From: Terriglobia bacterium
GTDB lineage: Bacteria > Acidobacteriota > Terriglobia > 20CM-2-55-15
Direction of reading: 5' to 3'
NCBI GenBank assembly: GCA_965206125.1
Contig: CBDBIN010000041.1
Span: forward strand, 155,674-219,673
Length of the DNA stretch: 64,000 bases
In this document: positions 13,660 to 55,581 of the stretch, piece after piece
How positions within the stretch are numbered: the stretch's first letter is position 1
Layout of the letters: each line of letters starts with the position of its first letter
Notes under the pieces: model-generated
Databases searched by the model: none
Told to the model about the DNA's origin: nothing
What the model saw: the letters and a program-made list of their open reading frames with translations, nothing else
Made by a program: the position numbers and the translations under genes

Positions 13660-13664
13660 GGGAA

Positions 13665-18721: not shown

Positions 18722-18739
18722 GCGGCTTTTTCTGCTCCA

Positions 18740-18814: not shown

Positions 18815-18833
18815 TCGGCTAACAGAGGAACTC

Positions 18834-19574: not shown

Positions 19575-19576
19575 CG

Positions 19577-36745: not shown

Positions 36746-38041
36746 ATGAGGATGGGCAGAACTGTACGTCTGGGTCTGTTGGGACTCGGAACAGTCGGGA
36801 AGGGCGTGTACCGTCTTCTCGAAGCCAACAGGCAACTGATCGAGCAGCGGATCGGTGCTTCGATCGAGATCGCGAAGATCGCGGTGCGCGACCCGGGCAA
36901 GGACCGCGGCATCACCTTCGGTGAAGGCATCCTGACCTCAGATGCCGCCGAGGTCGTCCGGCATCCGAATGTCGACATCGTCGTCGAACTGATCGGCGGA
37001 ACCGAGGTGGCCCGGGGCCTGATCTCCGAAGCCATCGGGGCGGGCAAGCACGTCGTTACCGCCAACAAGGCCCTGCTGGCAGAGCAGGGAGGCGAGCTGC
37101 GGTCCGCGGCACGCCGGGCGGGTGTTCTCCTGGGTTTCGAGGGAAGTGTCGGTGGCGGCATTCCCGTCATCAAGACGATTAAGGAGTCCCTGGCTGCCAA
37201 CCGGGTCCTGTCGATCTACGGCATCATCAATGGGACTTCCAACTACATCCTGACGAAGATGCGGGACGAGCGACGGCCCTATGCCGATGTACTGGTCGAG
37301 GCCCAGGAGGCCGGATATGCTGAGACCGATCCCACTTTCGATGTGGGTGGCGTCGACTCGGCACATAAGCTTGCGATCCTGGTGAACCTGGCGTTCGGCC
37401 TGGAGGTCTCGTCCCGAGACATCTATACGGAGGGAATCACCGAAATCAGTCCCGTCGACATTGAGTTCGGACGCGAATTCGGCTACACGCTCAAGCTGCT
37501 GGCGATCGCCAAGTCGGGCGGTGGGTCTCTCGAGGCCCGGGTTCACCCGACGCTCGTTCCCGATCACTACCCGATCGCTCAGGTCGGCGGGGTCTACAAC
37601 GCCGTCCAGATCGTCGGAGACGGGGTCGGAGACCTCATGCTGTACGGCCGCGGGGCCGGTGCGATGCCCACGGCCAGCGCGGTCCTGGGTGACGTCATCG
37701 ACATCTGCCGCAGTCGGGAGACCGGCCCGGCGCCCTCCTTCACATCCGGTGCGGACGCCCGGATCCAGCCCATCGAGGCTGTCGCCAGCCTGTACTACCT
37801 GCGTTTCATGGTCGAGGACAAGCCCGGTGTCCTGTCTACGATCTCCGGTGTGCTCGGACGGCACAACATCAGCATCGAGTCCGTCATCCAGAAGGGAAGG
37901 GACGCCGGCAGGATTGTCCCTCTGGTCATCATGACCCATACGGCGGTCGAGCGAGACATTCAGAACGCCCTCCTGGAACTCGATCAGCTGTCCGCCGTGG
38001 CTCTCAAGACCGTTCTGATACGCGTGGAAGCTGAAGACTAA
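36746..38041 (+). CDS. hom: Homoserine dehydrogenase
   Basis: NAD-binding GLLGLGTVG, catalytic domain blocks (GGGIPVI, NGTSNYIL), C-terminal ACT domain. Confidence 0.85.
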   Translation: MRMGRTVRLGLLGLGTVGKGVYRLLEANRQLIEQRIGASIEIAKIAVRDPGKDRGITFGEGILTSDAAEVVRHPNVDIVVELIGGTEVARGLISEAIGAGKHVVTANKALLAEQGGELRSAARRAGVLLGFEGSVGGGIPVIKTIKESLAANRVLSIYGIINGTSNYILTKMRDERRPYADVLVEAQEAGYAETDPTFDVGGVDSAHKLAILVNLAFGLEVSSRDIYTEGITEISPVDIEFGREFGYTLKLLAIAKSGGGSLEARVHPTLVPDHYPIAQVGGVYNAVQIVGDGVGDLMLYGRGAGAMPTASAVLGDVIDICRSRETGPAPSFTSGADARIQPIEAVASLYYLRFMVEDKPGVLSTISGVLGRHNISIESVIQKGRDAGRIVPLVIMTHTAVERDIQNALLELDQLSAVALKTVLIRVEAED

Positions 38042-38249
38042 GTCGCCCCGCGATCCTCAGCTAGAATTCCTAGAGTTACTGACAATAACCTAACAAACTT
38101 GTTGACCTCCAGATGACCCGTCTACCGAATTGGTGGACACGAACAATCTGCGCTTGTTTGTTTTCAATCGGTTAGGTAGTGGCACCCCGCGTGCACTTAT
38201 GTCGATCTAACGGATTGGAAGTGGTTCCATTTGGAAGGAGCTGAGGTTA

Positions 38250-39046
38250 TGAAAGCGGTCTACAAGCTGAGAAAACTGCTGAGAGGGACAAGAGGCGTCG
38301 CAACCTCTCTGATTGAAGCCACCGCCACCGTCGCCATCGGCGCCGTCTTGGCCGGGGTTGCGGTCGGCAGTGCGATCAATTCCATCAACGACTCGAAGAT
38401 TCAGGCCGCCATCGCGGACGTCCAGGTCATGGGCCAGGCCATCATCACGTTCTACAAGGACAATGCCTTCTTCCCGTTGTACAAGGATGGAAACGAAACT
38501 GGACCGGGCGATGATTTCTTCTTCAACCTGGTGTCCCGAAACGGTACGTACCCGACGGACACGACCGGGGACACCTGGAAGATTGCCGGTGCCGGCACCG
38601 GCTACACCGAGAACAACGCCGCTGGGCTTTTCGGCCATGACTTGCTCGCCACGGACGACGCCATCGAAGGGCACCTGGTCAACAATGCCATCGCCGCCAC
38701 CTTTGATGCCCAGACAGGCCTGCTGTCGGCGGGGGCCGGCTATCCGATCCGGGGGGATTATCCGGGTGACGCGCAACGCGGCTGGGCCGGACCTTACGCC
38801 GGCGTTTTGACGAAGGCGGATCCCTGGGGCAGCAAATACATTGTCAACGTCCGGATGCTGCATACCGGAAACTTTATCGGCCAGGATGCCGAAGAAATTC
38901 CGAATGCCGATCCGAACCTCAATTTCCCGTTGGTTGGCGTGGTCGTGCTCTCCGCAGGACCCGACCGCGCGATCGACACGCCCGCCAACCAGCTGGGCGA
39001 CGTGTTCACCGTCAACAACGACGACATCGTCTTCAGGATCAAGTAA
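38250..39046 (+). CDS. GspG-like (T2SS/T4P) pseudopilin with non-canonical prepilin N-terminus
   Basis: C-terminal GspG signature DPWGSKYIVNV...VVLSAGPDRAIDT...DDIVFRI. N-terminal RG|VATSLIE hydrophobic segment with Glu at +7 rather than +5. RBS GGAAGGAG lies 7 nt upstream of ATG 38250. Confidence 0.6.
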
Positions 39047-39099
39047 ACAAAGAGTTTTAAGCCAGACAGTCAATGTTCAGCCCGGGCGCCAGCCCGGGC

Positions 39100-39660
39100 T
39101 TTTTTTTCTGGTGGGAGGGAACTCGGTCACTACAGTTCCTGGTTCTGTCGGGGCAGCAGTGTCCGAACAGAACCCAGAGCGGTAGCGACGGGGTCGGCAG
39201 GCTCGACTGTTGCGGAATGAGTGTCGGTCAGAACCCAGAGCGGTAGCGACGGGGTGATCCCCGCTCCAAAACCCCAGAGCGGTAGCGACGGGTTCGGAAC
39301 CCGGTCACTACAGTTCCCGGTTCTGTTGGGGCAGCTGTGTCCGAACAGAATCCAGAGCGGCATCGATGGGGTCGGCAGGCTCGACTGTTGCGGAATGAGT
39401 GTCGGTCAGAACCCAGAGCGGTAGCGACGGGGTGATCCCCGCTCCAAAACCCCAGAGCGGTAGCGACGGGTTCGGAACCCGGTCACTACAGTTCCCGGTT
39501 CTGTTGGGGCAGCTGTGTCCGAACAGAATCCAGAGCGGCAGCGATGGGGTCGGCAGGCTCGACTGTTGCGGAATGAGTTTCGGTCAGAACCCAGAGCGGT
39601 AGCGACGGGTTCGGAACCCGGTCACTACCGTTCCCGGTTCTGTTAGCTTTCGGTTGATCT
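39100..39660. repeat. Tandem array: about 2.6 copies of a ~178-bp composite unit built from the REP-like core (CAGAAYCCAGAGCGGYAKCGAYGGGG, at least 8 copies) and the hairpin module (GGAACCCGGTCACTACNGTTCCCGGTTCTG, 4 copies)
   Basis: Direct inspection shows 39221-39398 and 39399-39576 are near-identical (identical 67-aa ORFs in the track). Spacers between the cores repeat identically, so this is unit duplication. Confidence 0.85.
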
Positions 39661-40969
39661 AGAACCCGAAGACCGAGAAGAACAGCCGTTTCGTCGAACC
39701 GCTCGCGTCCGGGTTCGTGATGCTGACCGGGACAAAGCCCGAGGTGCCCAGCAGGAGCCCGGGTACCGTGACCACGATCTCGGTCAGGGCCACGCTGTCG
39801 GGCGTCAGGACCGCCGTACCGAAGTTGACCAGAGTCCCAGCGACGAAACCTCCGCCCGAAATCGTAATCGTGACCGACGGGCTGCCCGGCGCTACGATGT
39901 TTGGATCCAGGGTCGCAATCGTCGGCGCAGACGCGCCGCCAGCTACGGCGACGGTGAAGGACTCCGCGGCCGAGCCGCCGCCTCCCGGCTGCGGCGCACC
40001 GACCGTCAGGAAATAGTCGCCCGAGCACTTGATCGTGACCGTGGCGACGATCTGCTGCGTGTTGACGGCAACCCCGGTGACCGCTTCCGGATCGTCACCG
40101 CAGGCTGAAACGATGGCGCCCGCCGTCGGGCCGAAGTTCGCCCCGTTCAGTATGACCGCCGCGTCATAGGTGTCATCGGGCCTGCCGTCGTCAAACGTCA
40201 GCGGCCCCGCGTCGATCGATTCCAGGACGGGACGCAGGTTGTTCAGGATCAACGGCCGGGCTTCGGACTGTCCCAGCGTCGGCGGCGGGTTCTGCACCGA
40301 AATGGCGAACGAGCCCCCCGTGTCCATAAGCCCCTGCTCCAGTGTCGCCGTCAGCGTCGTGCTGCTCAGGAACGTCGTGGGAAGTGGCTCGGAGCCGAAC
40401 AGCACCACAGCTTCCTCGAGGTAGCCGAAGCCCTTGACCGACAATGTCAGCGACGGAGAGTTCGGTTCGAGCCGCACCGTCGCCGATGTCGGGGTGATCG
40501 AGATCATTCCTGGGACCTGGCTGAAAACGTCCACGAGCAATTCGTTGGACGGCCCGACCGTTGGTGACGGATTTGCGGCGGTGATCGTAAGCGTGCCTCC
40601 CGATGCCAGGTCGTCCGCGGGGATGGTCGCCACCAACTCGGTCTCGTCGACCAACGTGGTCGACCGGGCGACGTCGTTCACCAGGACCGAAGCGTCTTCG
40701 AGGAAATCCGCTCCCAGTACTCTCAGATCGAAGCCCGAGTTTCCGGCGATCAGAGGCTCGGGAATCCCGTCGAGTGCGCTGATCGACGGCGCGGGGCTTC
40801 CGACCACGAAGGCCTCCGGATCCGATGACACCGTGTCGCCACCGGGTCCGGCGTTGCGGACGAGCATCTGTCCCTCGCGACCGAGTACGAGCAGCGTCTC
40901 TTCGAGCCTCGTTCCGAGCATGCCGTCATCGATCAGGGTTGTCGGAAGCGGCAACCCGTCAAACACCAC
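39659..40969 (-). CDS. Secreted/pilus-associated protein made of repeated Ig-like (IPT/TIG-like) domains; possibly the C-terminal part of the upstream prepilin-like gene
   Basis: About 4 repeats of a ~90-aa S/T/G-rich beta-sandwich-like unit. No signal peptide of its own. The upstream ORF's odd basic C-terminus suggests a frameshift joining the two. Confidence 0.45.
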   Translation of the reverse strand: MVFDGLPLPTTLIDDGMLGTRLEETLLVLGREGQMLVRNAGPGGDTVSSDPEAFVVGSPAPSISALDGIPEPLIAGNSGFDLRVLGADFLEDASVLVNDVARSTTLVDETELVATIPADDLASGGTLTITAANPSPTVGPSNELLVDVFSQVPGMISITPTSATVRLEPNSPSLTLSVKGFGYLEEAVVLFGSEPLPTTFLSSTTLTATLEQGLMDTGGSFAISVQNPPPTLGQSEARPLILNNLRPVLESIDAGPLTFDDGRPDDTYDAAVILNGANFGPTAGAIVSACGDDPEAVTGVAVNTQQIVATVTIKCSGDYFLTVGAPQPGGGGSAAESFTVAVAGGASAPTIATLDPNIVAPGSPSVTITISGGGFVAGTLVNFGTAVLTPDSVALTEIVVTVPGLLLGTSGFVPVSITNPDASGSTKRLFFSVFGF

Positions 40970-41118
40970 CTCGCTGCTCGGGATGAAAGGCCCGCCGGTG
41001 ATGGCGATGTCCGTCGCCGGGGATCCGAACAGGATGCTCGGCGGAGTGATCGACTCGATCTCGGGTACGATCAGCGTTCCCGCGAAATCGTTGTCCCTGC
41101 TGTTGGCGTCCGTGATCG

Positions 41119-42267
41119 TCAGCGCAATAGTCTCAGGAGCGAAAGTGAACCCCGTGGCCTGGGGATCCTCCGTTTTCCTCGCTCATGAACTTTGTCATCT
41201 TGATCCGGATGTTGCCACCCTCCTGTGGGGTTTCGCCGAGATTGGTGTCGGGAATCCGGGTCAAGGGTGACTGTATGCGGATCGGAAAAGGTCTGTCCCG
41301 TGGTAGACCCGATTCCGACGACGGTCGGTCCCGCAAAGTTCAGGGTTTCCCCGCTGGCTGCGCGGTCCGACGAATCGTCGAAGACTGTCTGGCTGCCAAT
41401 CTCCAACTTCTCATAGAAGGCGGTCACAGTGTATTCCGCCTTGAAACTGGTGATCGTGATGTCGCTCGATCCATGGTTTTGGATCACAAACTCTACCTCG
41501 CTGCCCGACGACAGTGAGACGCCGCTATCGTTGACGTAAACGAGTCCGGGATCGATTGCGAGACTCCGGTTTCCGAACGGAATGTCAGCGAATGTGTAGG
41601 CTCCGTCGTCATCGGTGTCGGTCTCCTGCTCGACGAAGACTCCATCCTGGGGGTGGTTGATCTTTACGTTTACTCCCACCAGGGGATTCCTTCCAGCATC
41701 CCGTACGTACCCGACAACAGTGGACAACATCTCCGTCCTGTAGATCTCCGTCGTGAGATCGTCTCCTCCTCCAACCGCCGCATCCGGTCCGTAACTGAAA
41801 ACTCGGGCCCGGTACTCCTGCCCTGTCGTCGTGCTCGTAGCTGTTTCGACAACGTACTGGATCGGGTTGCCCCACGCATCGAGATCGATCTGATCGAAGA
41901 ATCGGAGTGGTCCTACGTCGAGGTACGGGCCGGTCCATCCGCGGCCCAGCTTTAGGGAGGTGTCAAAGGTATAGCCGGGCTGAGACCCTGCGATCCAGAG
42001 ATCCTCCAGGGAAGAGGGCAGAGAGCCCATGCCAGCCAGCAGGCCAAAATCCATCCGTGCTTCCTTGGTTACGATACGCGGATTGCCTATCAACGCCCTC
42101 TTCAGCATGGAAAGCTTGGCGATCGTCTCCTGTTCGCGGGAGAAGTTCACTTGCTGATCGACGAGTGTTCCTGTTCCGACCACCAGCAGAGCGGTGATCG
42201 CGACGGAAACGATGGCTTCTAAAAGAGTAAAACCCCGGCTGCACCGATAATAATCCGTGATCGTCAT
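41119..42267 (-). CDS. Prepilin-type N-terminal cleavage/methylation domain protein with a GspG-like segment (DAWGNPIQY) and a CarbopepD_reg-like domain
   Basis: RG|FTLLEAIVSVAITALLVV (Glu+5) class-III signal. VGYVRDAGRNPLVGVNVKI resembles a carboxypeptidase regulatory domain. Confidence 0.55.
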   Translation of the reverse strand: MTITDYYRCSRGFTLLEAIVSVAITALLVVGTGTLVDQQVNFSREQETIAKLSMLKRALIGNPRIVTKEARMDFGLLAGMGSLPSSLEDLWIAGSQPGYTFDTSLKLGRGWTGPYLDVGPLRFFDQIDLDAWGNPIQYVVETATSTTTGQEYRARVFSYGPDAAVGGGDDLTTEIYRTEMLSTVVGYVRDAGRNPLVGVNVKINHPQDGVFVEQETDTDDDGAYTFADIPFGNRSLAIDPGLVYVNDSGVSLSSGSEVEFVIQNHGSSDITITSFKAEYTVTAFYEKLEIGSQTVFDDSSDRAASGETLNFAGPTVVGIGSTTGQTFSDPHTVTLDPDSRHQSRRNPTGGWQHPDQDDKVHERGKRRIPRPRGSLSLLRLLR

Positions 42268-42477
42268 CACTCCGATATTATGGCTTTGGGACCTAGTGGT
42301 TGCAACCATTTGTGGCGTCGTAAGGGACGGTGTGGCGCCGTCGGAACTTGCGGACCGGTTCGTGCTTGGCACGTCACGACCCGGGTTCCTTAAGGTTGGA
42401 CAAATTCTTCCGGAAGCAGAGCGGACCCTCCGGGGAGGGTCCGTAAGGAACGAGCAGAACAGGTGTTGGGCCGCGGG

Positions 42478-43071
42478 TCACCGGATGCGGTGGACGATGT
42501 CGTCGCCGCCGACCGCGAACGCGGCGACGTTGGGGTCCTGGTCGTATTCCGTGTCGAGCGTCTTGTCGGGTCCCGCCGAGATCACGAAAACGGCTTCCTC
42601 CTGGCCAGGCTTCAGGAAAGTCGCGTTCAGGTAATACTTGGTCCCCCAGGGGTCCGTGGAAATATCGTTCATGTAGGCGCCGTTCCAGGCCCGAAGACCG
42701 ATCGTGGTCAGCGCGAGCGAGTTCTCGTTGATGACCGCCGACATGTCGCCGTTGGTGCCTGTAGTCCAGGCGTCATCCGTGCTGTTGTCCGTCGGAACGT
42801 CGCCGTCGGTCTCGAGGGCGTCGTACGCATCCCCGTTCGGGATGTCGGACTGGTCGACGTAGATCGGCCAGATTCGAGTATCCGTATTGAAAGAGATGAT
42901 CGCCGCCGCGATGTTTCGTACGTCGTTTCGCGCCGTGTTGATACGGGCGCGGTCGATGTAGCTGGTGATCATCGGCGTGATGATCGACGCCAGGATCGCA
43001 ATAATCGCAAGCACGACGACGAGTTCCATCAAGCTCCATCCGCCGTTCGCTCTATCTCTTATTGATCGCAT
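42478..43071 (-). CDS. GspG-like major pseudopilin/type IV pilin
   Basis: GG|WSLMELVVVLAIIAILASI (Glu+5), and C-terminal DPWGTKYYLN...VISAGPDKTLDT...DDIVHRI. Confidence 0.7.
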   Translation of the reverse strand: MRSIRDRANGGWSLMELVVVLAIIAILASIITPMITSYIDRARINTARNDVRNIAAAIISFNTDTRIWPIYVDQSDIPNGDAYDALETDGDVPTDNSTDDAWTTGTNGDMSAVINENSLALTTIGLRAWNGAYMNDISTDPWGTKYYLNATFLKPGQEEAVFVISAGPDKTLDTEYDQDPNVAAFAVGGDDIVHRIR

Positions 43072-43311
43072 GGTCTGCTCCTCTTTGAAACGTCTCCCTT
43101 GCCCACTGAAGCACATGAGGTACCATGTTCCCAAAAGGTGTTATCTCATTGAATTCAGACGGATCCGGTCCAGGTATCCCTCATCTCGGGCTACGGAAAT
43201 GGTAGACAATGACCCAGTCCACTCTCGAAACTTGTTGAATATTGACAGTAATTGAAGCAAATTCACGTTTAATCCCTTGATTTTCGGTTAGGTAGCAGGC
43301 TTGCTATCTAT

Positions 43312-45141
43312 TTGAGAAGTATGTCCGAGACTGCACCCGGAAAGGCGACGACGAACCGCCGTGTCGTCGTCGTCATGTTCAGCGACATCGTCGGTTTCAC
43401 CGAGTACTGCGACAAGCACGGTGAAGAGGAAGGCGTAGAGCTCGTCGCTCGCCATGAGGACATGGTCTTCCCGATTATCGAAGCCCAGAAGGGGACGGTC
43501 GTCAAGACCATCGGGGACGCCGTCATGGCCTACTTCGAGGATGCCCCGCACGCCGGGATGGCCGCCAAGGAGATGATGCAGGCCGTCGCGCGCGACAACG
43601 CGGACAGGACCTCCGACCAGCAAATGCAGCTCCGGGTCGCCTTCCACCTCGGTCCTGTCATCGTCCGGAACAACGATCTTTTCGGGGACACCGTCAACCA
43701 GACCTCCCGTATGGCGGGAGTCGGCAAGCCCGGACAGATCCTGATCTCGAAGACGATGATCGATGTCTTGAGCGAGGATTCCAGATTCATCTGCCGTTTT
43801 GTCGGGAAGGCGGACTTCCACGGGAAGACGGGCACCATCGAGCTTTTCGAGATCCTGACCGAGGACCTGGAGCTCACCGAAAAGAAGAAGTCCCGGATCG
43901 TGTCCGACAGCGCGGTCAAGGACGCCCCGGCCGAGGGTCAGGGGCGACTGATTGGGGATAAGTACTTCATAGAAAAGCTGATCGGGGAAGGGGCCTACGG
44001 CAAGGTGTTCAAGGCGCGGCATGCCGAGACCAAGGAAACGGTCGCGATCAAGATGCTGCCCGAGGATGCCTACGCTTTCTACAGCAGGGAAGCCCAGGTG
44101 CTGCGCCAGCTCCAGCCTTGTCCCTACATCATGGCGATCCTCGACGCCCTGGTGGATGAGGATGGTCTCTGCATTGTGATGCCCTACATCGAGCACGGTA
44201 GCCTGCAGACCTACATGAACACGCTGCACGGCGATCCGCTCGAGCCGGGGCAGACGATTTCCCTGATGGAGGAGCTCCTGCTGGGCATCGCGCATGCCCA
44301 TTCGCGCGACGTGATACATCGGGACGTGAAGCCGCAGAACATCCTGCTCGCGAACGGTACCGACGGGATTCTGTCCGACTTCGGCATCGCCCACGCCATG
44401 GAGTCGACCGGGCGCACGAGCACGATGACCCAAGGGACCTCCGGCTATATCGCTCCGGAAGTCACATCAGGACGGTTCGACAGCACGATCGACGTGTATT
44501 CGGCCGGCGTCGTGCTGTACAAGATGCTCGGCGGCGAGTTTCCCGTGGACATGGAGACGCTGCCCCCCTATACGCACCCCGATTTCGTCAAGATCATCGC
44601 CCGCGCCATAGCCGAGCGTCCCAAGCGTTACTCGACCCCCGAGGACATGCTCGGGGATCTCCACGGAATGGCGTCGAAGGTGCTCAGCTCGACGATCGAG
44701 TCGATCGCTCAGTCGGGCGAGGAAAGGGTGCTGGTGGCGGTCGAAGACTCCAGCTGGTCGATCATGGAACCGGCCCTGGAGGCCAGGAAGTTCATCAACA
44801 TCCGCTGCGGGCTCGACAATATCCTCAAGTATGTCCACTGGAAGTATGTCCACTGGCACATTCCCGCCGTAACCGTCCTGGATGCCGCGCTGTTGAACTC
44901 GTCGGGGATCGATGTGAACGAACGCGTCGCCGCATGCAGCGCCCTCGGGACCCGCGTGATCGTGATCAACTGCGGCGCGATCGAGGAAGCCCAGGACCTG
45001 ATCAAGAACGGCGCCGCCGACTGCACCGCCGCCATCGGCGCCCCGCAGTCTCTCGAAGCCCTCACGATGTCCATCGACACCATGATTACCCAGATCCAGC
45101 TCGGGTCCGGGAAGTCGTGGTGGAAACGCATCCTCTCTTAA
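43312..45141 (+). CDS. Fusion protein: class III adenylate/guanylate cyclase domain + Ser/Thr protein kinase domain + C-terminal uncharacterized domain
   Basis: Cyclase block VVVVMFSDIVGFTEYCDKHG...TIGDAVMAYF...FHLGPVIV...GDTVNQTSRM. Kinase block IGEGAYGKVFKA...VAIKM...HRDVKPQNILL...DFGIAH...GTSGYIAPE. Confidence 0.75.
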   Translation: MRSMSETAPGKATTNRRVVVVMFSDIVGFTEYCDKHGEEEGVELVARHEDMVFPIIEAQKGTVVKTIGDAVMAYFEDAPHAGMAAKEMMQAVARDNADRTSDQQMQLRVAFHLGPVIVRNNDLFGDTVNQTSRMAGVGKPGQILISKTMIDVLSEDSRFICRFVGKADFHGKTGTIELFEILTEDLELTEKKKSRIVSDSAVKDAPAEGQGRLIGDKYFIEKLIGEGAYGKVFKARHAETKETVAIKMLPEDAYAFYSREAQVLRQLQPCPYIMAILDALVDEDGLCIVMPYIEHGSLQTYMNTLHGDPLEPGQTISLMEELLLGIAHAHSRDVIHRDVKPQNILLANGTDGILSDFGIAHAMESTGRTSTMTQGTSGYIAPEVTSGRFDSTIDVYSAGVVLYKMLGGEFPVDMETLPPYTHPDFVKIIARAIAERPKRYSTPEDMLGDLHGMASKVLSSTIESIAQSGEERVLVAVEDSSWSIMEPALEARKFINIRCGLDNILKYVHWKYVHWHIPAVTVLDAALLNSSGIDVNERVAACSALGTRVIVINCGAIEEAQDLIKNGAADCTAAIGAPQSLEALTMSIDTMITQIQLGSGKSWWKRILS

Positions 45142-45142
45142 G

Positions 45143-45180
45143 CCAGAACCGAGAGCGGTAGCGACCGGGTAATTCCGGGC
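45143..45180. repeat. REP-like core copy (CCAGAACCGAGAGCGGTAGCGACCGGGT) starting 2 nt after the cyclase-kinase stop
   Basis: Matches the core at 39160-39640. Confidence 0.5.
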
Positions 45181-45354
45181 CAAAGGGCGACCCGTAGGCA
45201 TGTAGTGGGGGCCCGGCCAGACGTTAGAAACTAAAGGAATGGCAGGCGTGGGGGGACCGTGCCCGTTTGAGTTCCCGCTATCATGGGCTAGAAACCCAGC
45301 CAGGGCACTCTCCGAGTCGGGCGAGCGTAGGCGCGGTGGGCCCGACGCTAAGGG

Positions 45355-45437
45355 AAGAACCGAGAGCGGTAGCGACCGGGTGACTCCCAAGCGACCAGTT
45401 CTCATTTCCGACCCCGTCGCTACTGCTCCGGGTTCTG
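45355..45437. repeat. REP-like element as an inverted pair (GAACCGAGAGCGGTAGCGACCGGGTGA ... GACCCCGTCGCTACTGCTCCGGGTTCTGA), predicted long hairpin
   Basis: The reverse complement of the right arm is about 85% identical to the left arm. Both match the dispersed core. Confidence 0.5.
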
Positions 45438-45733
45438 ACTGCGGGGCAAGCAAGGGACACGTCAAGATTCCCGATCTACAGTGACATCAGCTCGGCGAAT
45501 TCTGATGTGCCCGCGGCAGCAGACCTTCAGGGTGACGGCGACGCCCCGACCACGGGAGCCGGATGGGCTCTGACATCGTCGATCGACCTCGATGAATACC
45601 TCAACACGGAAAAGCTGGGCCTAGCGCGACCGGCGCTCGGGGCAAGTCTTTCGGTGATTTCGGCCCAGGCTGTGAGCCCGCTTTTCTCGCCGGTTTCCGG
45701 CGCTGCAGCAGACTACTGGCGAGAAATGCGGGC

Positions 45734-46324
45734 TTAACCGACGAGCATGGCCGCTACCGCCCCGGCACTTAACCAGGGGCCCAAGGCCTGAGGGCCGACG
45801 GCTCCGCCCCAGCGTTTCAGCAGGACGGCTCCGGCAACTCCGAACACCCCGGTGAAGACAAGGGCCGCGATGATCCCCGGCCATCCCAGGAACGCGCCTA
45901 TCATCGCGGACAGTTTCCAGTCTCCCCCACCGACTTCCTTGCTGCGGGCCGCTTCGACCACCGTTGCGGCGATCAGGACGCCGCCGCCGAAAAGGAGGCC
46001 GACAAGGGACAATCCGAACCCGGAAGGAAGTACCCACCAGCCGAGGACGAGGCCCGCCAGAGTGCCGGGAACCGTGATGAGCAGAGGAATGTGTTGGGTG
46101 CGAAGGTCGATCAAGGTCACCGCCAGCAGGGCGAGGGTGAACGATCCGTAGACTGCCACGATAGGCCAGTCGAACCCGTACCGGAGACCGGTTGCGGGCA
46201 GGAGCAACGCCATCCCCCCGACCGCGATAGACCGTTCGGCATTGTGTGCTTGTCGGTGGCGCCTGCCAACCAGAACGTAGGTCGCCAACCCAAGAACTGC
46301 ACCCGTGATGAAGAGCGAAATTAC
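45734..46324 (-). CDS. A24-family prepilin peptidase (short form, no N-terminal Zn/methyltransferase domain evident)
   Basis: TM-rich. Conserved blocks ...LIDLRTQHIP..., GGGDWKL, LGPWLSAGAV. The upstream part of the track ORF is low-complexity antisense overlap. Start assigned at about 46324 (GTG). Confidence 0.6.
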   Translation of the reverse strand, partial: VISLFITGAVLGLATYVLVGRRHRQAHNAERSIAVGGMALLLPATGLRYGFDWPIVAVYGSFTLALLAVTLIDLRTQHIPLLITVPGTLAGLVLGWWVLPSGFGLSLVGLLFGGGVLIAATVVEAARSKEVGGGDWKLSAMIGAFLGWPGIIAALVFTGVFGVAGAVLLKRWGGAVGPQALGPWLSAGAVAAMLVG

Positions 46325-46337
46325 GTGGACAGCGGCA

Positions 46338-47616
46338 TTACCCGCCACTCGAAAGTTCCCGGATCTTCTGTTCGACACTTTCGACGAATTGGGGATACTG
46401 GCTGGAACCGAGTTCGAGGAAGCGGTTGAAATGATCGATCGCCTCGCGGACCTCGCCTTGCTCTTCGTACAGCCAACCGAGGTTGTAGTGGGCTGCGGCG
46501 CTCGCCGGGTTGGCCTGGAGAGCCTCGAGATACAGGATCTTGGCCCGCTCCGTCTCACCCTCGTTCCTGTAATGGTTGGCGAGGTTCGTGATGGCATCGG
46601 CGTTCCGCGGGTTTATGGCGATCGCCCGCTCGTATTCCCGGACGGCTTCCGACTCCTGACCCGCTTCCAGGAGGGCCGTTCCCAGGTTGTTGTGGGCCAG
46701 GTCGTAGTTGGGGTTGATCACGATCGCGAGCCGGAACTCTTCGATCGCAGCGGCATTGTTCGACATCGCCATGTAGAGCAATCCGAGGTTGTTCCTGGCG
46801 GAGGCGTTCCGAGGATCGGCATCGAGAACCTGGATGTAATAGGGCAGAGCTTCTAAGTAGCGACCGGCCTGGTGATAGAGCAGGGCCGAATCGAACGGAT
46901 CGCTGACCGCAGGCTCGACCCGTGGATCGCCTGCCGCCGGCGGATTCGGCGATGATGCGGGATCATCCCCGGCGAGTGTTGTCTGGATCGCGATCTCATC
47001 CTCGCCCGGCGTCGCGGACCCGGGTCCGGTATCTACCGCACCCTCGGGGTCCAGATCCTGGGCAGCGGGCTCGTCTGGTTCTATTGCTAGCGACGGCTCC
47101 GCATCAGGAGCAGGCACGGGTGGCGGCGTTGCGTTGGACGTTTCGGCTTGCTCCATCGTCGGTGGTTCGGGCTCCTGGGCCCCAGAGGCCGGGCCTGGCT
47201 CTTGCTCCCCGGCGGCCACCGGATCGCCCTCTACGACTTCGCCGGTCCCCGCCTCCCCACCGTCCGGGCTCGCCTCTTCTGGCCCGCCCTCTTCGGGTCC
47301 GTCCTCAGGGGGCAACAGGCCATCGTCGTCCGGGAACAGCGGGTCGGTTCCGGGAGCTGGGTCGATCTCGAGCAACTGAGCCTGCTCGGCCATGGGTGAG
47401 GAGGCGGTCCGGTTGATCCAGTAGAGCACCCCCGAGGCAATAATCGCGCCGAGTACAACGACCGGTACGACATAGGTCAGCAGGATCTTCTTTGTCTTGT
47501 TTCCTTTGGCCTGTTCTGCGAAACCGAAGCTCTTGAGGTAAGCCGGCGCCTTCTGAGGCCGCGGACCCGCCCGCCAGCTTCTTTGCCTTGCGCAGTGCGT
47601 CGAGGATGGAGCTCAT
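46338..47616 (-). CDS. GspB/MshN-like protein: N-terminal MSSILDALRKAKK motif, TM helix, Pro/Glu-rich linker, C-terminal TPR repeats; apparent +1 frameshift between the N-terminal 30 codons and the rest
   Basis: ATG at 47616 encodes MSSILDALRKAKKLAGG. The TPR ORF frame is open upstream to that point with no start of its own (…KAPAYLKSFGFAEQAKGNKTKKILLTYVVPVVVLGAIIASGVLYWINR). Confidence 0.5.
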
Positions 47617-47640
47617 GAGCCTCTCTGGTCTGATCTCAGT

Positions 47641-47916
47641 CTAGCAGCCTGTGGCAGAACCCTGTGGGGCCGCGCGCACGGGTCTTCGGGTCGCGGGCGC
47701 GAAGAGAGGAGGGCACGATGCGGTTTCATCGTAACCGACGAGGGACAAAGCCCGAGGCCCGAACCCCCATGCGCCCGAAGGGTTACGGCGAAACGGCACC
47801 GGATTCGTTGTCGTCGACTCCTCACAATGAAAGGGCATTGTCTCGTCCTCGTCTCCTAGAATCCGGTGCCGTTTGGCCGTAACGCGACCCCACAGGGTTC
47901 TGCCACAGGCTGCTAG
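47641..47916. repeat. MITE-like/long palindromic element (276 bp): perfect 29-bp terminal inverted repeats CTAGCAGCCTGTGGCAGAACCCTGTGGGG, plus nested inner inverted repeats (GGTTACGGCGAAACGGCACCGGATTC / GAATCCGGTGCCGTTTGGCCGTAAC)
   Basis: Seen directly. Bases 47641-47669 are the exact reverse complement of 47888-47916. The inner IR pair is 47779-47806 versus 47858-47885. The left half carries a 109-bp insertion between outer and inner repeats. Confidence 0.75.
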
Positions 47917-48872
47917 CCGCCTACTCCGTTCACGATTGCCACCAGCGCCAGCGCGAGCAGGATAGACAGCCCCACGACGAGGGCCGTCCGCCGCATCCCG
48001 AACAGGGCCTTGGACCACGTCGACAAACCGGTCCCGGACCGGTACTTCTTCAACTGAAGGTTGTGGATCGCCTGCTCGGCCACACCCCCGTCGATCGTGC
48101 CGGCGCCGGTCGCCATCCCGGCCAGGAGTGACCGGTCCGCGATGAGGTTGATCAGCCGGGGCACACCACCGGAGTACTCGCATATCTCCTTAACGGCGGA
48201 AGGCGCGAACGACACCCTCGCCGTGCTGCCACCCGCCACCGAAAGGCGGTGCCGGAGGTAGTCGCCGACTTCCGATGGCGACAGCGCCGAAAGCTCGCAC
48301 TTGATCGAGACCCTCTGGAAGAGCTGCCGGAGCTCGGGCTGGGACAGGAGGTCCAGCAGGTTGAGCTGCCCGACGAGTACGATTTGGAGCAGCTTGTCCT
48401 TGTTGGTTTCCAGGTTTGACAGGATCCGGATCTGCTCGAGCGTTGCCATCGGAATGTTCTGCGCCTCGTCGATCAAGACGACCGCTCGTTGCCCCGCCTC
48501 GAGGGTCTTCAGGAGAAAGTCGTTCAGCGTGTTGATGAGATCCTGCTTCGTCACCGCCTCGCCGTTCTTCCTGCGAGGGGGCTTGACGTCGAAGTCTTCC
48601 AGGATTGCTTTGATCAGGTCGGTTTCCGACAGGAACGGGTTGAGCAGGAGCGCGGTGCATACGCCCTTGTCGATCGTGTCCAGCACGGTCCGGCACAGAG
48701 TGGTCTTGCCCGTTCCGATGTCCCCGTACACGATCATGAAGCCTTCCCGCCTCTGAATGCCGTACTGGAGCAGTTCGAAAGCCCGCGTGTGGCCTTCGCT
48801 CCGGTAGAAGTACTTCGGATCGGGTGTCAGGCTGAACGGTGGTTCGATCAGACCGTAGTGTTCTTCATACAT
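47913..48872 (-). CDS. GspA/ExeA/MshM-family AAA ATPase
   Basis: Walker A GDIGTGKTTL, ExeA-like blocks (LLLNPFLSETDL, VVLIDEAQNIPMATLEQIRILSNLE), C-terminal TM helix. Confidence 0.75.
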   Translation of the reverse strand: MYEEHYGLIEPPFSLTPDPKYFYRSEGHTRAFELLQYGIQRREGFMIVYGDIGTGKTTLCRTVLDTIDKGVCTALLLNPFLSETDLIKAILEDFDVKPPRRKNGEAVTKQDLINTLNDFLLKTLEAGQRAVVLIDEAQNIPMATLEQIRILSNLETNKDKLLQIVLVGQLNLLDLLSQPELRQLFQRVSIKCELSALSPSEVGDYLRHRLSVAGGSTARVSFAPSAVKEICEYSGGVPRLINLIADRSLLAGMATGAGTIDGGVAEQAIHNLQLKKYRSGTGLSTWSKALFGMRRTALVVGLSILLALALVAIVNGVGG

Positions 48873-48918
48873 GACGCGTCGAATCGTCCTCCTGGTCCTT
48901 GCTGGATTGCCCGAGGGG

Positions 48919-50424
48919 CTACTGGTCCTGGGTGCCTCCTCCTTTCAAAGCCTCCTGCTGTTCCATCCGCTCGCGTGCGTAGTCCGCGGCCGTCCGAATC
49001 GTCAGAATCCGGGGGGAGATCAGGATCACCATGTCGGTTTTCCGGGTTTCCAGTTCCGTTTTCCTGAAAATCGCCCCGATGAGGGGAATGCTTCCCAGGA
49101 TGGGAATTTTGTTCACTTCTGACAGTGTCCGGTCGGAGATCAGACCGGCAATAACCGCCGTCTCGCCGTCGGCGACGCGAATCACGATGTCGGTTTCCCG
49201 GACATCGACGATCGGGACGCTGATTCCTTCCGGAGACGTGGCCTGACCCGTCCGCTCGGTGATCGTCGGATGGATGTTCATCGTGACGATTCCGCCCGAG
49301 CTGATCTGGGGTGTGACATCCAGAACGACGCCTTCGTTGATCGTCGACGGGGTGGTCGTGGACTGGACGATGGCGCCCGTTGTTGGGTCGAGCGTGTTCG
49401 TCGTCGTGAAGAAGACGTCCTGCGTTCCAACCCGCATGACCGCGGGTTGGTTGTGGAGCGTCGAAACCGAAGGAGAGGACAGGACGTTTACGGCGCCGTG
49501 TTGAGACAGCAGCTGGATCAGCCCCGTAAAGTTGTCGCTCGAGATGCCGAGGTTGAAACCGCCCTGGCCGATGCCAAAGCTCTGGATGATGTTTCCCGTC
49601 GTCCCCAGAATCGCCGCCCAATCGACGCCGGTCTGATGGTTTTCGTTGAGCTTGACCTCGATGAAGCGGGCTTCGATGACGACCTGTCTGTTGACGGCGG
49701 TCTGGACCAGTTCCAGGTAATTGCTGATCGTGTCGAGGTTCTGGCGGAAATCGGTAACGAAAATCAGACTGGCCATGCGGTTAAATACGAAGGAGCCTTC
49801 GGCGGACAACAACTGCCCGAGCCCGGCTTCCAGGTCGCTCAAGACGTCCGTCGATTCCGAGCCTGACACGGAGGTTGACGAACCGCCGCCCCCGCCGCCG
49901 ACGGCATTCCCGCCCGCACCGCCCCCGCCGGCGCTCGCGCTGGCCGAAAGCGATCGGGCAACTTGTCGAACAGTCGTGACGTAGTCGAATTCGAAGGTAC
50001 GTCTTTCTAACTCCGGTCGGCCAACACGCAGAAAGTCACCTTCGATCGAATACTCCAGACCCAGGGGCGTCAGGATGATCTGCAGGGCTTCTTCGAGAGT
50101 AACGTCGCGCAGGTCGACCGTGACCGTCGCGGAGACACCGGGGACCATCAGCAGGTTCAACCCGTGGGCCTGGGCGAGCAGCGTCAGCAGCGGACGCAGG
50201 TCTCCGGCGTTGACCTCGACCTCGATCGGTTGGTTCTGAGACTGTGGGTCGACGTCAAGCTGCGTGGCCGGCAGTTGACCGCCGCCGGGCGCGGCCTGTG
50301 CCGCTGCCGGTGTTGCCACGCCCGCACCCGCCTGGGTAGCGATCTGCGAGACGTTCAGTTGCTGGGGTAAGGGCAGCGGCGGTCCCTGTATGAGCAACGC
50401 CGCGGCCAGGACGAATACTTTCAT
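48919..50424 (-). CDS. Secretin (GspD/PilQ/MshL family) outer-membrane channel
   Basis: N-domains, then the secretin C-domain (VNVLSSPSVSTLHNQPAVMRVGTQ...IPILGSIPLIGAIFRKTE...VILISPRIL). Gly-rich linker. Confidence 0.85.
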   Translation of the reverse strand: MKVFVLAAALLIQGPPLPLPQQLNVSQIATQAGAGVATPAAAQAAPGGGQLPATQLDVDPQSQNQPIEVEVNAGDLRPLLTLLAQAHGLNLLMVPGVSATVTVDLRDVTLEEALQIILTPLGLEYSIEGDFLRVGRPELERRTFEFDYVTTVRQVARSLSASASAGGGGAGGNAVGGGGGGSSTSVSGSESTDVLSDLEAGLGQLLSAEGSFVFNRMASLIFVTDFRQNLDTISNYLELVQTAVNRQVVIEARFIEVKLNENHQTGVDWAAILGTTGNIIQSFGIGQGGFNLGISSDNFTGLIQLLSQHGAVNVLSSPSVSTLHNQPAVMRVGTQDVFFTTTNTLDPTTGAIVQSTTTPSTINEGVVLDVTPQISSGGIVTMNIHPTITERTGQATSPEGISVPIVDVRETDIVIRVADGETAVIAGLISDRTLSEVNKIPILGSIPLIGAIFRKTELETRKTDMVILISPRILTIRTAADYARERMEQQEALKGGGTQDQ

Positions 50425-51026
50425 CGTTTACTCCCTCGAGGCGGACCCGGTCTTAGCCCGAAGGGCCGCTCGATCAAGATTTCGCGTACCTGTCCGTTCA
50501 ATTCCAGAATGATTCCCCTATCGGTGATTGACGTTATGGTTTCCGTGCCCAGGAGCTCGCCCGGCCGCATGACCCTCGAGTTGACGACGGCCCACTTGCC
50601 GTTCTCACCCGAAAAGATTACCGACACCCGGTAGGAGGGAAGCGCTACCGTTGCAGTTGGGGCCTCGATCAAAGGCATGATGGGTACGATGATCTGTCCC
50701 GGTTGCGACTGCATGGCGGCGATCTCATCGAGTGTCAGAAAGGGATTGCGACCCCATACGCCCTGGGGCAGGGAGACCGCTTGGGCGGGCTCCGTCCCGG
50801 TGCCGGTTAGTGCGGGCGCCGCCGAGGGTGTGCCGGCCGGCGTCGGCTGGGCGGGTGGGGCGATTACCGCTGGGGGTACGGGTTCCTGTGAAGCCGGGTC
50901 CGCCGGAGCCTCGGCGGTCACAATCGGTGGGGCGGGCCGTGAGCGCCACACCTGCAAGCCGATCACGCCTCCGATCATGATGACGCCGAAGACAATGAGG
51001 AGGCCCTGCTTCGCTTTCTCACTCAT
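50421..51026 (-). CDS. PilP/GspC-like pilot protein (TM anchor, Pro-rich linker, C-terminal beta domain)
   Basis: Position in the operon, topology and composition only. Confidence 0.45.
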   Translation of the reverse strand: MSEKAKQGLLIVFGVIMIGGVIGLQVWRSRPAPPIVTAEAPADPASQEPVPPAVIAPPAQPTPAGTPSAAPALTGTGTEPAQAVSLPQGVWGRNPFLTLDEIAAMQSQPGQIIVPIMPLIEAPTATVALPSYRVSVIFSGENGKWAVVNSRVMRPGELLGTETITSITDRGIILELNGQVREILIERPFGLRPGPPRGSKR

Positions 51027-51607
51027 GCGGCATCCTCAGCCTTGTACACGCGGAAGACCATCGAGACCCGGATCTCCGGAGGGCTCCGGCGGAAATCTAC
51101 CGAAACGAATTCCGTCAGACGCGGCAGGGTCCCCACGGCCTGGACGAACTGGGCGATGTTGCTGTACTCGCCGCCGAACGTGATCGTGAACACCAGGTAG
51201 CGTCGGATGCCCACCTGGTCCAGCAGTTCGTCGCCCGGGCGGGGCCCCTGAACTTCTCCGACGACCTGTTCTTCGGAATCGATGTCGAAATCTTGCAGCC
51301 TGTAGACCCCCGACAGCCGGGAAATTTCGCTGAAGAACTGCGCGACCTCGGCGTCGGGAAGCAGCCGGCTCGCCAGCAGGTTCTGCTGGGACGCCCACTC
51401 CCGCCTTTCTTCGTCCGTCGGAAGGACAACGGCATCGGCATCCAGTTCCTTCTGGGCCAGCACCCGTTCTTGCTCCGCCAGGGCGTCGCGCCTGGCACCG
51501 AGATCCCAGGTGGTCCAGACCGTTCCCGCGATTGCAAGCACGATTAGAGCGACCGAGGCGACCAGCACACGGTCGACTTTCTTCAGAAACTTGAGGTCAA
51601 TAGGCAT
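51023..51607 (-). CDS. PilO/GspM-like inner-membrane assembly protein
   Basis: Single TM, coiled coil (ALAEQERVLAQKELD), C-terminal ferredoxin-like domain. Operon context. Confidence 0.5.
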   Translation of the reverse strand: MPIDLKFLKKVDRVLVASVALIVLAIAGTVWTTWDLGARRDALAEQERVLAQKELDADAVVLPTDEERREWASQQNLLASRLLPDAEVAQFFSEISRLSGVYRLQDFDIDSEEQVVGEVQGPRPGDELLDQVGIRRYLVFTITFGGEYSNIAQFVQAVGTLPRLTEFVSVDFRRSPPEIRVSMVFRVYKAEDAA

Positions 51608-53106
51608 CGGACTTCGAAGTTCACCCTGCTGATGACGATCGGGGCCGTTTCCGCATCGGCTCCCGGCGGTCGGACATTTTCGTAGCTCACGCTCAGTTGC
51701 TCGCTCAGTTCGACGGACCGGAAGTGCTCCAGCCCACTTAGATCCGTGAAGAACGCGTTAAAATCCGCGCTGACGTTGGTCGCTGCCTGCGCCCCACGAA
51801 GGTACCCCTTGATGACCAACGCGCTGGACTGGCCGCCCTCGATCGCTATCGACTCAAACACCGCCGTTTCAGGCACGATGAGGCTCAGGCTGCGGAGGGC
51901 CTCATTCCATTGCACCCCGCCCGCCATCCGTTGAGCGAACGCCGCCCGCCTCTGGGCCACGGCACGCTCCGCCTCTGCGTCGATGCCTCCCTGGATAACC
52001 GGTTCCAACTCGGCGATGCTCTGTTCCACGGCCGCAGTCTCTTCGACAGCCTGCCTGGTTCCCGTGAAATACCGAAAGCCGGCCAGGAGCGACACCGTCA
52101 AGGCGATTGCTGCCGCTATCTTGATCAGTTTTTGGTAGACGGGAGGCCCTTCCTTCGAGCCGGCCTTGCCCGGTATCAGGTTCAGGCTCGAATCGAGCGT
52201 CTTGTGCCAGGCTACTCCGAATGCGGTCGCCAATGAGGGCACATGAAATCGGAACTCGTCCCAGTCTCCCTTGAAAGCCGACGGATCGAGGTTGTCTTCA
52301 AACCTCAGGACATTCGATTCGATTCCGAGTTCATCCTTCGCCCGGGCTACCAGGTTGCCGATCATGTCGCTTTCGCCCGAGAAAAGCACCACGCCGATCT
52401 CCCCCTGGGGGAAGTTCTGCCGGAAGTACAGGGTCGACCGTTTGATTTCGGTCAATATCCGCTCGATCCGCTGGTCCTGGTCGAGGTCTCCGTAGCGGAT
52501 AGGGATGTCGCGGCAGAGCAGGAGCGTGCCGTGTTGGATGAAGAGCACATGGACGCTGTTCGGGCTGAAATGAACGAGGTTCTTGACCACCTCCTTCTTC
52601 CAATAGCCGACGTGCTCGGTCAGGTTCAGCAGCGATTCACCGACGGTGGTCACGCGCTCCAGCTTCAGCTTGGTTCGTCCGAAGAACTCCTGGGCCTGGG
52701 CGACGAGTTCCGTGTTGGCCGTGACGAGCAGGATCTGGCGCTTCTTGATGCCGAGCTCTTCTTTGGTCTGGAGGAGTTGGAAATCCCAGAACGTATCGGT
52801 GACGCCGGCGGGAACGGACTTCTTCGCCTCCCGTTGCATCACGAAACGCAGCTCGCGGCCCGACAGCGGGGGCAGCGTCAGCAGGCGATGCTCCACCTGG
52901 ACACCCGTCACGGCCACGACGGCTTCTTTCGCTTCGAACCCGCGCACCTGTAGCGCGTGGTTCAGCTGGTCGAACCGTCGCTCCGGGTCGACCGAGCGGT
53001 TGTCCACGATGGCGAAGTTGTGAACCTTGAGCCGGCGGGCGAAGCTCACCTCGACGAGCTTGATGCTCTCAGGCGAAAACTCTACTCCCAGAATGCGGTT
53101 TGCCAT
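51583..53106 (-). CDS. PilM-PilN fusion protein (actin-like ATPase fold plus TM/coiled-coil PilN part)
   Basis: PilM-like N-terminal 330 aa (…ILGVEFSPESIKLVEV…), then a TM helix (IAAAIALTVSLLAGF) and a PilN-like coiled coil. Confidence 0.7.
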   Translation of the reverse strand: MANRILGVEFSPESIKLVEVSFARRLKVHNFAIVDNRSVDPERRFDQLNHALQVRGFEAKEAVVAVTGVQVEHRLLTLPPLSGRELRFVMQREAKKSVPAGVTDTFWDFQLLQTKEELGIKKRQILLVTANTELVAQAQEFFGRTKLKLERVTTVGESLLNLTEHVGYWKKEVVKNLVHFSPNSVHVLFIQHGTLLLCRDIPIRYGDLDQDQRIERILTEIKRSTLYFRQNFPQGEIGVVLFSGESDMIGNLVARAKDELGIESNVLRFEDNLDPSAFKGDWDEFRFHVPSLATAFGVAWHKTLDSSLNLIPGKAGSKEGPPVYQKLIKIAAAIALTVSLLAGFRYFTGTRQAVEETAAVEQSIAELEPVIQGGIDAEAERAVAQRRAAFAQRMAGGVQWNEALRSLSLIVPETAVFESIAIEGGQSSALVIKGYLRGAQAATNVSADFNAFFTDLSGLEHFRSVELSEQLSVSYENVRPPGADAETAPIVISRVNFEVRCLLTSSF

Positions 53107-53110
53107 CGGT

Positions 53111-55560: not shown

Positions 55561-55581
55561 CGGGTTCTTCAAAGAGCTGGA

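Follow-up and report, generated by a model that had tools for sequence, protein, structure and literature searches.

The stretch of Terriglobia contig CBDBIN010000041.1 analyzed here (64,000 nucleotides, referred to below as the window) contains, at positions 43312-45141 of the plus strand, a gene whose product combines a predicted class III adenylate cyclase domain, a Hanks-type Ser/Thr kinase domain, a divergent receiver-like domain and a short conserved tail. The gene of this protein, the cyclase-kinase, is located within a gene cluster for a pilus of the mannose-sensitive haemagglutinin (MSHA)-like type. The open reading frame (ORF), previously recorded in a first-pass annotation of the same DNA, was borne out exactly. 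By the mechanical rule it starts at TTG 43312 (609 aa), and it ends with the TAA at 45139-45141; the true start is probably ATG 43321, which we prefer because the starts of relatives coincide there, and all residue numbers below follow the resulting 606-aa protein.

The cyclase domain (43363-43839, plus strand) was assigned from a Pfam match, from its alignment with Ma1120 (4wp3) and from residue invariance. The annotation had placed a class III cyclase N-terminal to a Hanks-type kinase, and the Pfam scan revealed both domains in this order and above their cut-offs: Guanylate_cyc (PF00211) matches residues 18-176 (E 2.1e-22; 80 bits, cut-off 21.9) and Pkinase (PF00069) residues 220-415 (E 1e-46; 159.9 bits, cut-off 31.7). 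In an alignment of 23 family members, which share 59-99% identity, the metal-binding aspartates D22 and D66, the transition-state residues N126 and R130 (within a GDTVNxxSRM motif) and the substrate-specifying pair K62/D119 are all invariant. The cyclase is therefore not the degenerate form for which the annotation had allowed, and the residues from which it proposed to read the substrate are those of the ATP pair. In class III cyclases, Lys/Asp at these positions specifies ATP, and Glu/Cys specifies GTP. Since K62/D119 is the Lys/Asp pair, the domain is predicted to be ATP-specific and should make cyclic AMP (cAMP); cyclic GMP or pyrimidine specificity was rejected on the same ground.

The best solved relative of the cyclase domain is Ma1120 (E 1.3e-21). 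Both metal-binding aspartates and the arginine align with the same residues of this protein, in which an Ala takes the place of N126 and the Asn is found two residues before it. The two Ma1120 positions changed in the variant chain 5d0g, which we take to be an engineered specificity mutant, are the counterparts of K62 and D119 in the alignment. A weak GGDEF match, also present in the Pfam scan, is explained by the fold that GGDEF and cyclase domains have in common (PMC1262709). All NCBIfam matches were kinase-only or cyclase-only and fell far under the equivalog cut-offs.

The linker between the two enzymes begins with a conserved basic, Ser-containing motif, (T)EKKKSRIVSD (43876-43908, plus strand), in which K188, K190, V194 and S195 are invariant and S191 is nearly so, and which is followed by a variable Ala/Pro/Gly stretch. 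This motif is a candidate autophosphorylation or regulatory site. The linker is the region of highest dN/dS (ratio of nonsynonymous to synonymous substitution rates, omega) in the closest pair of sequences, formed by the window and L014, the contig of a 98%-identical relative. The kinase domain (43969-44691, plus strand) has PknB of S. aureus (4eqm) as its best solved relative (E 1.3e-28). It contains a GEGAYG Gly loop, VAIK with K244, the alphaC residue E257, HRDVKPQN (H333, D335, N340), DFG (D353), APE (378-380) and R436, and all of the catalytic motifs are invariant in the 23 sequences; the Pfam match ends at model position 200 of 263. The family of PASTA kinases PknB/Stk1 (NF033483) is matched by the kinase domain alone, at 150.5 bits versus a cut-off of 450.

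The annotation had described the C-terminal part of the protein as a domain of ~180 aa and of unknown function. A domain is indeed present there (44725-45102, plus strand), but it is smaller (~150 aa) and its kind can be named, since it has, as modelled, a (beta-alpha)5 CheY-like fold, and is followed by a tail resembling a membrane anchor. No Pfam family matches residues ~460-609, and PF00072 was not matched at E <= 0.01. The best receiver found with the family profile among solved structures had an E-value of only 0.87, and the profile of the C-terminal domain, compared with PDB sequences, retrieved only designed TIM barrels and IMPDH, with marginal E-values. Pairwise alignment of the domain to receivers with hhalign gave E 0.03.

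The phosphorylation pocket was mapped from the strands of the model and from a local hhalign alignment to a small profile of CheY and other receivers; the global hhalign alignment to CheY was wrong, and the local one was used instead. D521 lies where beta3 ends and is matched with the phospho-acceptor D57 of CheY; all of the 23 sequences have it, as do at least 90% of the members of a 35-sequence alignment. After beta1 there is one conserved acidic residue (D/E), the other position being E/T/A/G, with a register that is uncertain by one residue. No member has a Lys at or near the K109 position, where the family reads GAADC(L/T)(P/A)(S/A), and none has a Thr or Ser at the T87 position, where VNC follows beta4. 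Because these two defining features of the pocket fail, we did not file the domain as a canonical receiver; judged from the model, it is a receiver fold with an incomplete phosphorylation pocket. Three cysteines of the domain are conserved (C539, C551 and C568; 44935-45024), of which C551 follows beta4, beside the T87 position, and C568 lies in beta5, at the Y106 position.

A search of 1.84 billion representative proteins with the C-terminal domain returned the family, its fragments, two apparent chimeras and three weak matches, the last of these being long, unrelated proteins. Within this collection, the receiver-like domain appears to be unique to the cyclase-kinase family. In the two chimeras, a canonical receiver (P0124) and an imidazolonepropionase-like protein (P0125) are each joined to the last ~50 residues of the family (GAADCL to WWKRxLG); they were rejected as new architectures, as they probably arose in assembly. 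Alignment also revealed a perfect 15-bp tandem duplication in the window copy (AAGTATGTCCACTGG twice; 44827-44856, plus strand), which repeats KYVHW in frame within the conserved VHWH.P motif just before beta3 and is found in none of 34 relatives.

The protein ends with G(G/K)SWWKRIL(G/S), in which WWK is invariant; in the window this tail, SWWKRILS, is encoded at 45115-45138 (plus strand). It is present in 35 of 35 complete members of the family and in none of the 79 other kinases found in the same search. Its hydrophobic moment is 0.54-0.60, versus 0.45 for GFLKRLFGG of MinD and 0.51 for GSWIKRL of FtsA, which places it at the 96th-97th percentile for the cyclase-kinase protein, and it is modelled as a helix with low confidence (pLDDT about 49-62). 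The ends of E. coli FtsA (GSWIKRLNSWLRKEF) and MinD (KKGFLKRLFGG), as read from the K-12 genome, resemble the tail in sequence, in their extreme C-terminal position and in hydrophobic moment, which in the tail is as high or higher. The tail is probably an amphipathic membrane-targeting helix or a docking motif.

A scan for further WWKR tails in the window and in loci L005-L014 revealed a single other carrier, a double-receiver protein ending with PWWKRLVRSA (35889-36686, plus strand), in which the first receiver is degenerate and the second canonical. The form PWWKRL occurs in 117 of 120 relatives of this protein, all of them from Terriglobia-type sources. The double-receiver protein is also encoded in L008 and L010 and on contigs of other genomes that carry the cyclase-kinase, and its gene adjoins that of homoserine dehydrogenase at the edge of the pilus region in the window and in its close relatives L098-L100. 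Unlike the ends of FtsA and MinD, the motif in the double-receiver family is followed by four to six mostly basic residues; we infer membrane tethering, and because of these trailing residues a role as docking motif seems equally possible.

In a full-length search the cyclase-kinase was recovered as a tight family of ~600-aa proteins with 58-98% identity, followed by a sharp drop to about 32%, beyond which lie longer cyclase-kinase proteins with other C-termini. The genome matches were all metagenome-assembled genomes of Terriglobia (Acidobacteriota), including Solibacteraceae, and the family appears to be small and found only in Terriglobia. Every domain is under purifying selection: pairwise comparison gave dN/dS values of 0.04-0.2 for the cyclase, for the kinase and for the C-terminal region, and an omega of 0.06 between the window and L014. 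Proteins with a cyclase followed by a kinase are present in databases under automatic names. Literature searches covering fusions of cyclases and kinases, Hanks kinases linked to pili, and the pili of acidobacteria returned no account of the family, of the receiver-like domain with its tail, or of a cyclase-kinase within a pilus cluster.

The machinery of the pilus is encoded on the minus strand (45734-57243) and consists of a prepilin peptidase, a TPR (MshN-like) protein, an AAA_22 (MshM-like) protein, a secretin, PilO-like and PilM-like proteins, a platform protein and a T2SSE+MshEN ATPase. The label MSHA-like rests on Pfam matches for each component, and the comparison with Vibrio Msh proteins is one of domain content. 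On the other side of the cyclase-kinase gene, and divergent from it, lies the gene of a GspG-like pilin with the prepilin motif GWSLME (42478-43071, minus strand; 42478-43134 in the Pfam neighbour scan), and a pilin-like gene with N_methyl and CarboxypepD_reg matches in Pfam is located at 41119-42372 (minus strand). The mechanical ORF of the Peptidase_A24 prepilin peptidase (45734-46597, minus strand; 287 aa) overlaps the TPR gene (46338-47429, minus strand) by 260 bp; its true start probably lies further downstream, the calls in relatives being ~200 aa.

The position of the cyclase-kinase gene was compared in all loci with a readable context (the window, L001-L004, L006, L008, L011-L014, L016, L017, L027, L102 and the contig of P0015). 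Every true member lies on the strand opposite to the pilus genes and has pilin genes on both sides. The usual order in relatives is (i) large pilin-like genes and the GspG-like pilin gene (minus strand), (ii) the cyclase-kinase gene (plus strand), (iii) two or three pilin genes (minus strand), and (iv) the genes of a sigma-54 response regulator, a PAS histidine kinase, the prepilin peptidase, the TPR protein, the AAA_22 protein and the secretin; in the window, the secretin gene is followed by those of the PilO-like, PilM-like and platform proteins and the MshEN ATPase. None of twelve distant cyclase-kinase fusions (26-33% identity) with a readable ORF has pilin neighbours. In long-read contigs of low coverage, of which L102 (6x) is one, some of the frameshifts may reflect sequencing errors.

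The cyclase-kinase gene had been annotated as lying between pilin genes and the prepilin peptidase gene. This is correct for the window but not ancestral: the adjacency to the peptidase gene appears to be a derived state, because in relatives the two genes are separated by two or three pilin genes and by those of the sigma-54 regulator and PAS histidine kinase. Comparison with L014 (blastn and the gene table of L014) revealed that the window lacks ~7.6 kb, present in L014 at 12516-20335, with pilin genes, two IS256-type transposases and the genes of the sigma-54 response regulator and PAS histidine kinase. At the junction of this deletion there is an inverted 170-bp fragment of a pilin gene (45453-45622, blastn against L014), and the upstream pilin-like block is also replaced in the window relative to L014. 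The deletion is either a rearrangement mediated by an insertion sequence (IS) or an assembly artefact. In L099 and L100 (13642-20798) the pilins, cyclase-kinase, sigma-54 regulator, histidine kinase and prepilin peptidase have all been lost, IS3-type elements are located at the edges of the loss, and the double-receiver protein is 97% identical. These comparisons suggest that the lineage is eroding its pilus locus, with an artefact at the junction being possible.

Several conserved elements lie in the intergenic region between the cyclase-kinase gene and the divergent pilin gene. A sigma-54-type promoter of the pilin gene (TGGTACCTCATGTGCT; 43110-43125, minus strand) lies upstream of it, and an equivalent element is found at the same position in L005, L006, L008, L011, L013 and L014; taken alone, the sigma-54 pattern is no commoner in the window than expected (21 matches versus 21). 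About 75 bp upstream of this element, the intergenic alignment revealed a palindrome, CTAC-N7-GTAG (43191-43205), which is invariant in eight loci down to 62% protein identity, and it further revealed an invariant box, CGAAAnnTGTTGAA (43226-43239). The palindrome is a candidate site for an enhancer-binding protein, a role that the layout would fit. A candidate sigma-54 promoter of the cyclase-kinase gene itself (GGTAGCAGGCTTGCT, 43291-43305) is near-perfect in L008 and not conserved elsewhere, and it was retained only as a lead; a sigma-70 promoter scan found nothing.

The annotation had also reported repeats resembling repetitive extragenic palindromes (REPs) at the 3' end of the gene, and these are indeed present. 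They extend over 45145-45447, with copies at 45145-45176 and a hairpin at 45340-45447 (-56 kcal/mol, z -3.9). The core GAACCGAGAGCGGTAGCGACCGGGT, of the form AGAACC(C/G)AGAGCGGTAGCGAC(C/G)GGGT, has eight matches in the window versus none expected, and both tandem and inverted copies were seen. Elsewhere in the window the repeat forms three tandem 178-bp units (39118-39651) and occurs as one copy at 62855-62879, and L014 has three tandem repeat copies of ~108 bp at the same 3' position. When positions 38000-47000 were scanned against Rfam, all scores stayed below the gathering cut-offs, and the repeat matches no Rfam family.

The window is rich in ISs. Three copies of the IS30 type (HTH_38 and rve domains) are present, at 7390-8559 (minus strand), 11710-12879 (plus strand) and 54242-55447 (plus strand), the last of which is inserted in the pilus operon, between the ATPase and platform genes. 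There are also an IS256-type transposase plus a fragment, an IS110 fragment and an IS4-like DDE transposase; the coordinates of the non-IS30 elements are 32375-33619, 2807-3490 and 2185-2736 (all minus strand) and 9300-10832 (plus strand). A second Hanks-type kinase, with PD40/WD40-like beta-propeller repeats attached (3635-6334, plus strand), is unrelated to the pilus locus.

Several known systems share parts of this architecture. The best solved relatives of the cyclase are the catalytic domains of Ma1120, Rv1264 and LipJ/Rv1900c (E 1.3e-21 to 7e-12). Like these minimal mycobacterial cyclases, the domain is compact (~165 aa), and its metal-binding Asp pair and Lys/Asp pair align with theirs; unlike them, it has no N-terminal regulatory module, has the canonical Asn-Arg motif GDTVNxxSRM and is followed by the kinase, the receiver-like domain and the tail. 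A kinase-like and a class III cyclase domain are combined in one polypeptide in Pkn2 of M. xanthus and the TOMM fusion (TIGR03903), both previously noted as kinase-then-cyclase fusions, and in eukaryotic receptor guanylyl cyclases (PMC1262709). In the protein described here, in contrast, the cyclase comes first, both domains are catalytically complete by sequence, the gene lies in a pilus cluster, and there is no transmembrane segment, AAA or TPR domain. The TOMM kinase/cyclase family is matched at 95 bits versus a cut-off of 705.75, with a length of 606 versus 1267 aa and a reversed domain order. The distant fusions (P0042-P0046, P0055, P0060, P0077; L018-L028) have the same cyclase-then-kinase order and 26-34% identity over both domains; they differ in length (700-1180 aa) and in their C-terminal modules (TPR, PEGA and others), and they have neither a WWKR tail nor pilin neighbours.

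In Pseudomonas, the cyclase CyaB has a receiver protein of one domain, PilG, acting upstream of it. As proposed here, pilus biogenesis genes of P. aeruginosa are controlled by cAMP (through Vfr) and by two-component regulators (PMC8787478), but the cyclase, kinase and receiver reside there on separate proteins and loci, and not on one protein encoded inside the pilus cluster. The receiver-like domain differs from atypical receivers such as FrzS of M. xanthus in that the Asp is kept, the Lys and Thr are lost, three cysteines are conserved and the domain is C-terminal to two enzymes. The pilus locus shares with Vibrio MSHA clusters the MshEN ATPase, platform, PilM-like, PilO-like, secretin, AAA_22 and TPR components and several pilins; it differs in gene order and in the addition of a prepilin peptidase, a sigma-54 enhancer-binding protein with a PAS histidine kinase, large CarboxypepD_reg pilin-like proteins and the cyclase-kinase. 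A role in anti-phage defence was set aside on account of the pilus-cluster context; matches to MADS6 and the PglW kinase were far under the cut-offs, and the PADLOC library was not searched.

We lean towards the view that the cyclase-kinase is a membrane-tethered, dual-output accessory regulator of the MSHA-like pilus. Its link to the pilus is supported by the synteny, which is strictly conserved in all family loci with readable context, and the loss of the gene together with the pilin block in the close relatives L099 and L100 was also counted in its favour. The proposal of the annotation, a dedicated regulator of filament assembly, is partly supported: the link to the pilus can be retained, and the protein may act either on assembly or on expression. 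Since the gene lies on the strand opposite to the pilus genes and is absent from the intact locus L101, its product appears to be an accessory regulator and not a core part. It also seems dispensable for the pilus, being absent from L101 and 5'-truncated in L009 and L010.

On this proposal, the WWKR tail would tether the protein to the inner membrane, next to the machinery of the pilus, where the double-receiver protein, with the same tail, would sit too. Class III cyclases build their active sites across the dimer interface, and we therefore propose that the protein would act as a homodimer. Since there is no N-terminal sensor or other sensor domain, the receiver-like domain would be the input, setting dimerisation or activity. 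Given that the pocket lacks its Lys and Thr, this would occur through contact with proteins such as the PAS histidine kinase of the locus or pilus components, and not by canonical Asp phosphorylation. The first output would be cAMP, acting through a cAMP receptor encoded elsewhere, and the second would be Ser/Thr phosphorylation of proteins of the locus, most plausibly of the sigma-54 response regulator driving the pilin promoters. Expression of the cyclase-kinase is probably coupled to that of the pilins, because the control region is common with the sigma-54-dependent pilin promoter. In this genome the protein may work without its usual circuit, since the partner genes are deleted. The literature offers precedents, namely the control of type IV pilus genes by cAMP/Vfr in P. 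aeruginosa (PMC8787478), a response regulator, AlgR, that is a substrate of the Ser/Thr kinase Stk1 (PMC11197903), and an archaellum under the control of two Hanks kinases, ArnC and ArnD (PMC5300886).

Several observations weigh against this proposal. The gene is on the strand opposite to all of the pilus genes. It is missing from L101, a collinear and otherwise intact locus on a 6.47-Mb Terriglobia chromosome, in which neither a remnant of the gene nor the intergenic boxes were found. In two Terriglobia species it is 5'-truncated: L009 (10001-11441) lacks residues 1-121 and has a frameshift near residue 460, and L010 (10001-11119) lacks residues 1-224. In the window, the partner genes are deleted and the five-residue KYVHW duplication falls within that motif of the receiver-like domain which is conserved best. 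Domain scans revealed no cyclic nucleotide-binding, FHA or PP2C protein encoded in the window, and the full-length AF2 model (pTM 0.40; pLDDT 25-40 in the N-lobe of the kinase) was too poor to indicate how the domains pack.

The assembly of L101 has 9.7x long-read coverage. A pilin by the gap (7641-8001) appears frameshifted in it, with an N-terminal FTLIE piece in another frame, which may be a sequencing error.

Of the other explanations, the one that survives best concerns the window copy, which might be an orphan in a decaying pilus locus whose pathway no longer works. The ~7.6-kb deletion removed pilins, the sigma-54 response regulator and the histidine kinase, an IS30-type element separates the ATPase and platform genes, the receiver-like domain carries the 15-bp duplication, and close relatives have lost the whole block. 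However, the ORF is intact, with an omega of 0.06 relative to L014; the deletion could be recent or an artefact of the metagenome-assembled genome, and the genes lost from this locus may be present at another place in the genome. We regard decay of this kind as possible, if doubtful.

Less probable is a canonical phosphorelay, in which the PAS histidine kinase would phosphorylate Asp521 and thereby switch on both the cyclase and the kinase, as in receiver-cyclase response regulators. Its attraction lies in the invariant Asp at the end of beta3, the acidic residue after beta1 and the histidine kinase encoded in the same locus in relatives, and P0060 is a receiver-cyclase-kinase protein with a standard Response_reg domain. 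In the family itself, however, no member has the Lys at K109 or a Thr/Ser at T87, there is no Pfam Response_reg match, the family profile finds no solved receiver, and the histidine kinase already adjoins a cognate sigma-54 response regulator, which together make this scheme unlikely.

We consider it improbable that the protein serves signalling in general and has no functional tie to the pilus, its position being simply inherited from an old insertion between pilin genes. The opposite strand would agree with such an origin, as would the absence of the gene from intact L101, its degradation in L009 and L010, and the lack of an obvious effector encoded nearby. Yet the position has been kept down to 62% protein identity, with synonymous divergence saturated, while the surrounding pilin genes turned over. 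In addition, the intergenic region shared with the sigma-54 pilin promoter contains invariant blocks, the tail motif is common to another signalling protein of the locus, and the distant cyclase-kinase fusions never lie beside pilins.

A more specific form of input is a long shot: the three cysteines may constitute a thiol switch that replaces the phospho-switch, so that a redox or metal state, or pilus load, would be reported via cAMP and Ser/Thr phosphorylation, and separately the WWKR tail may be an address tag that brings the cyclase-kinase and the double-receiver protein to the pilus platform. Finally, it is highly improbable that one of the catalytic domains, the cyclase being the likelier, has a role in dimerisation or regulation only, as has the kinase-homology domain of receptor guanylyl cyclases. 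Fusions of live and dead domains are indeed common in this superfamily (e.g. the kinase-like domain of eukaryotic guanylyl cyclases; PMC1262709), and the Pfam kinase match extends no further than model position 200 of 263, but neither the six cyclase residues nor any of the kinase motifs vary among the 23 sequences, and omega is 0.04-0.2 in both domains.

In model bacteria, type IV pili are controlled by cAMP, two-component systems and Ser/Thr kinases through separate proteins encoded in separate loci. Here, three signalling currencies appear to be brought together in one polypeptide encoded inside the pilus cluster of an abundant and poorly studied soil phylum. Natural variants for comparison are at hand, as some loci carry the gene, one lacks it and others have truncated copies. 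If the link to the pilus is real, the cyclase-kinase would be a test case for the co-regulation of a cyclase and a kinase by one receiver-like module, and would open the regulation of the pilus in Acidobacteria to study from a compact and genetically addressable starting point.

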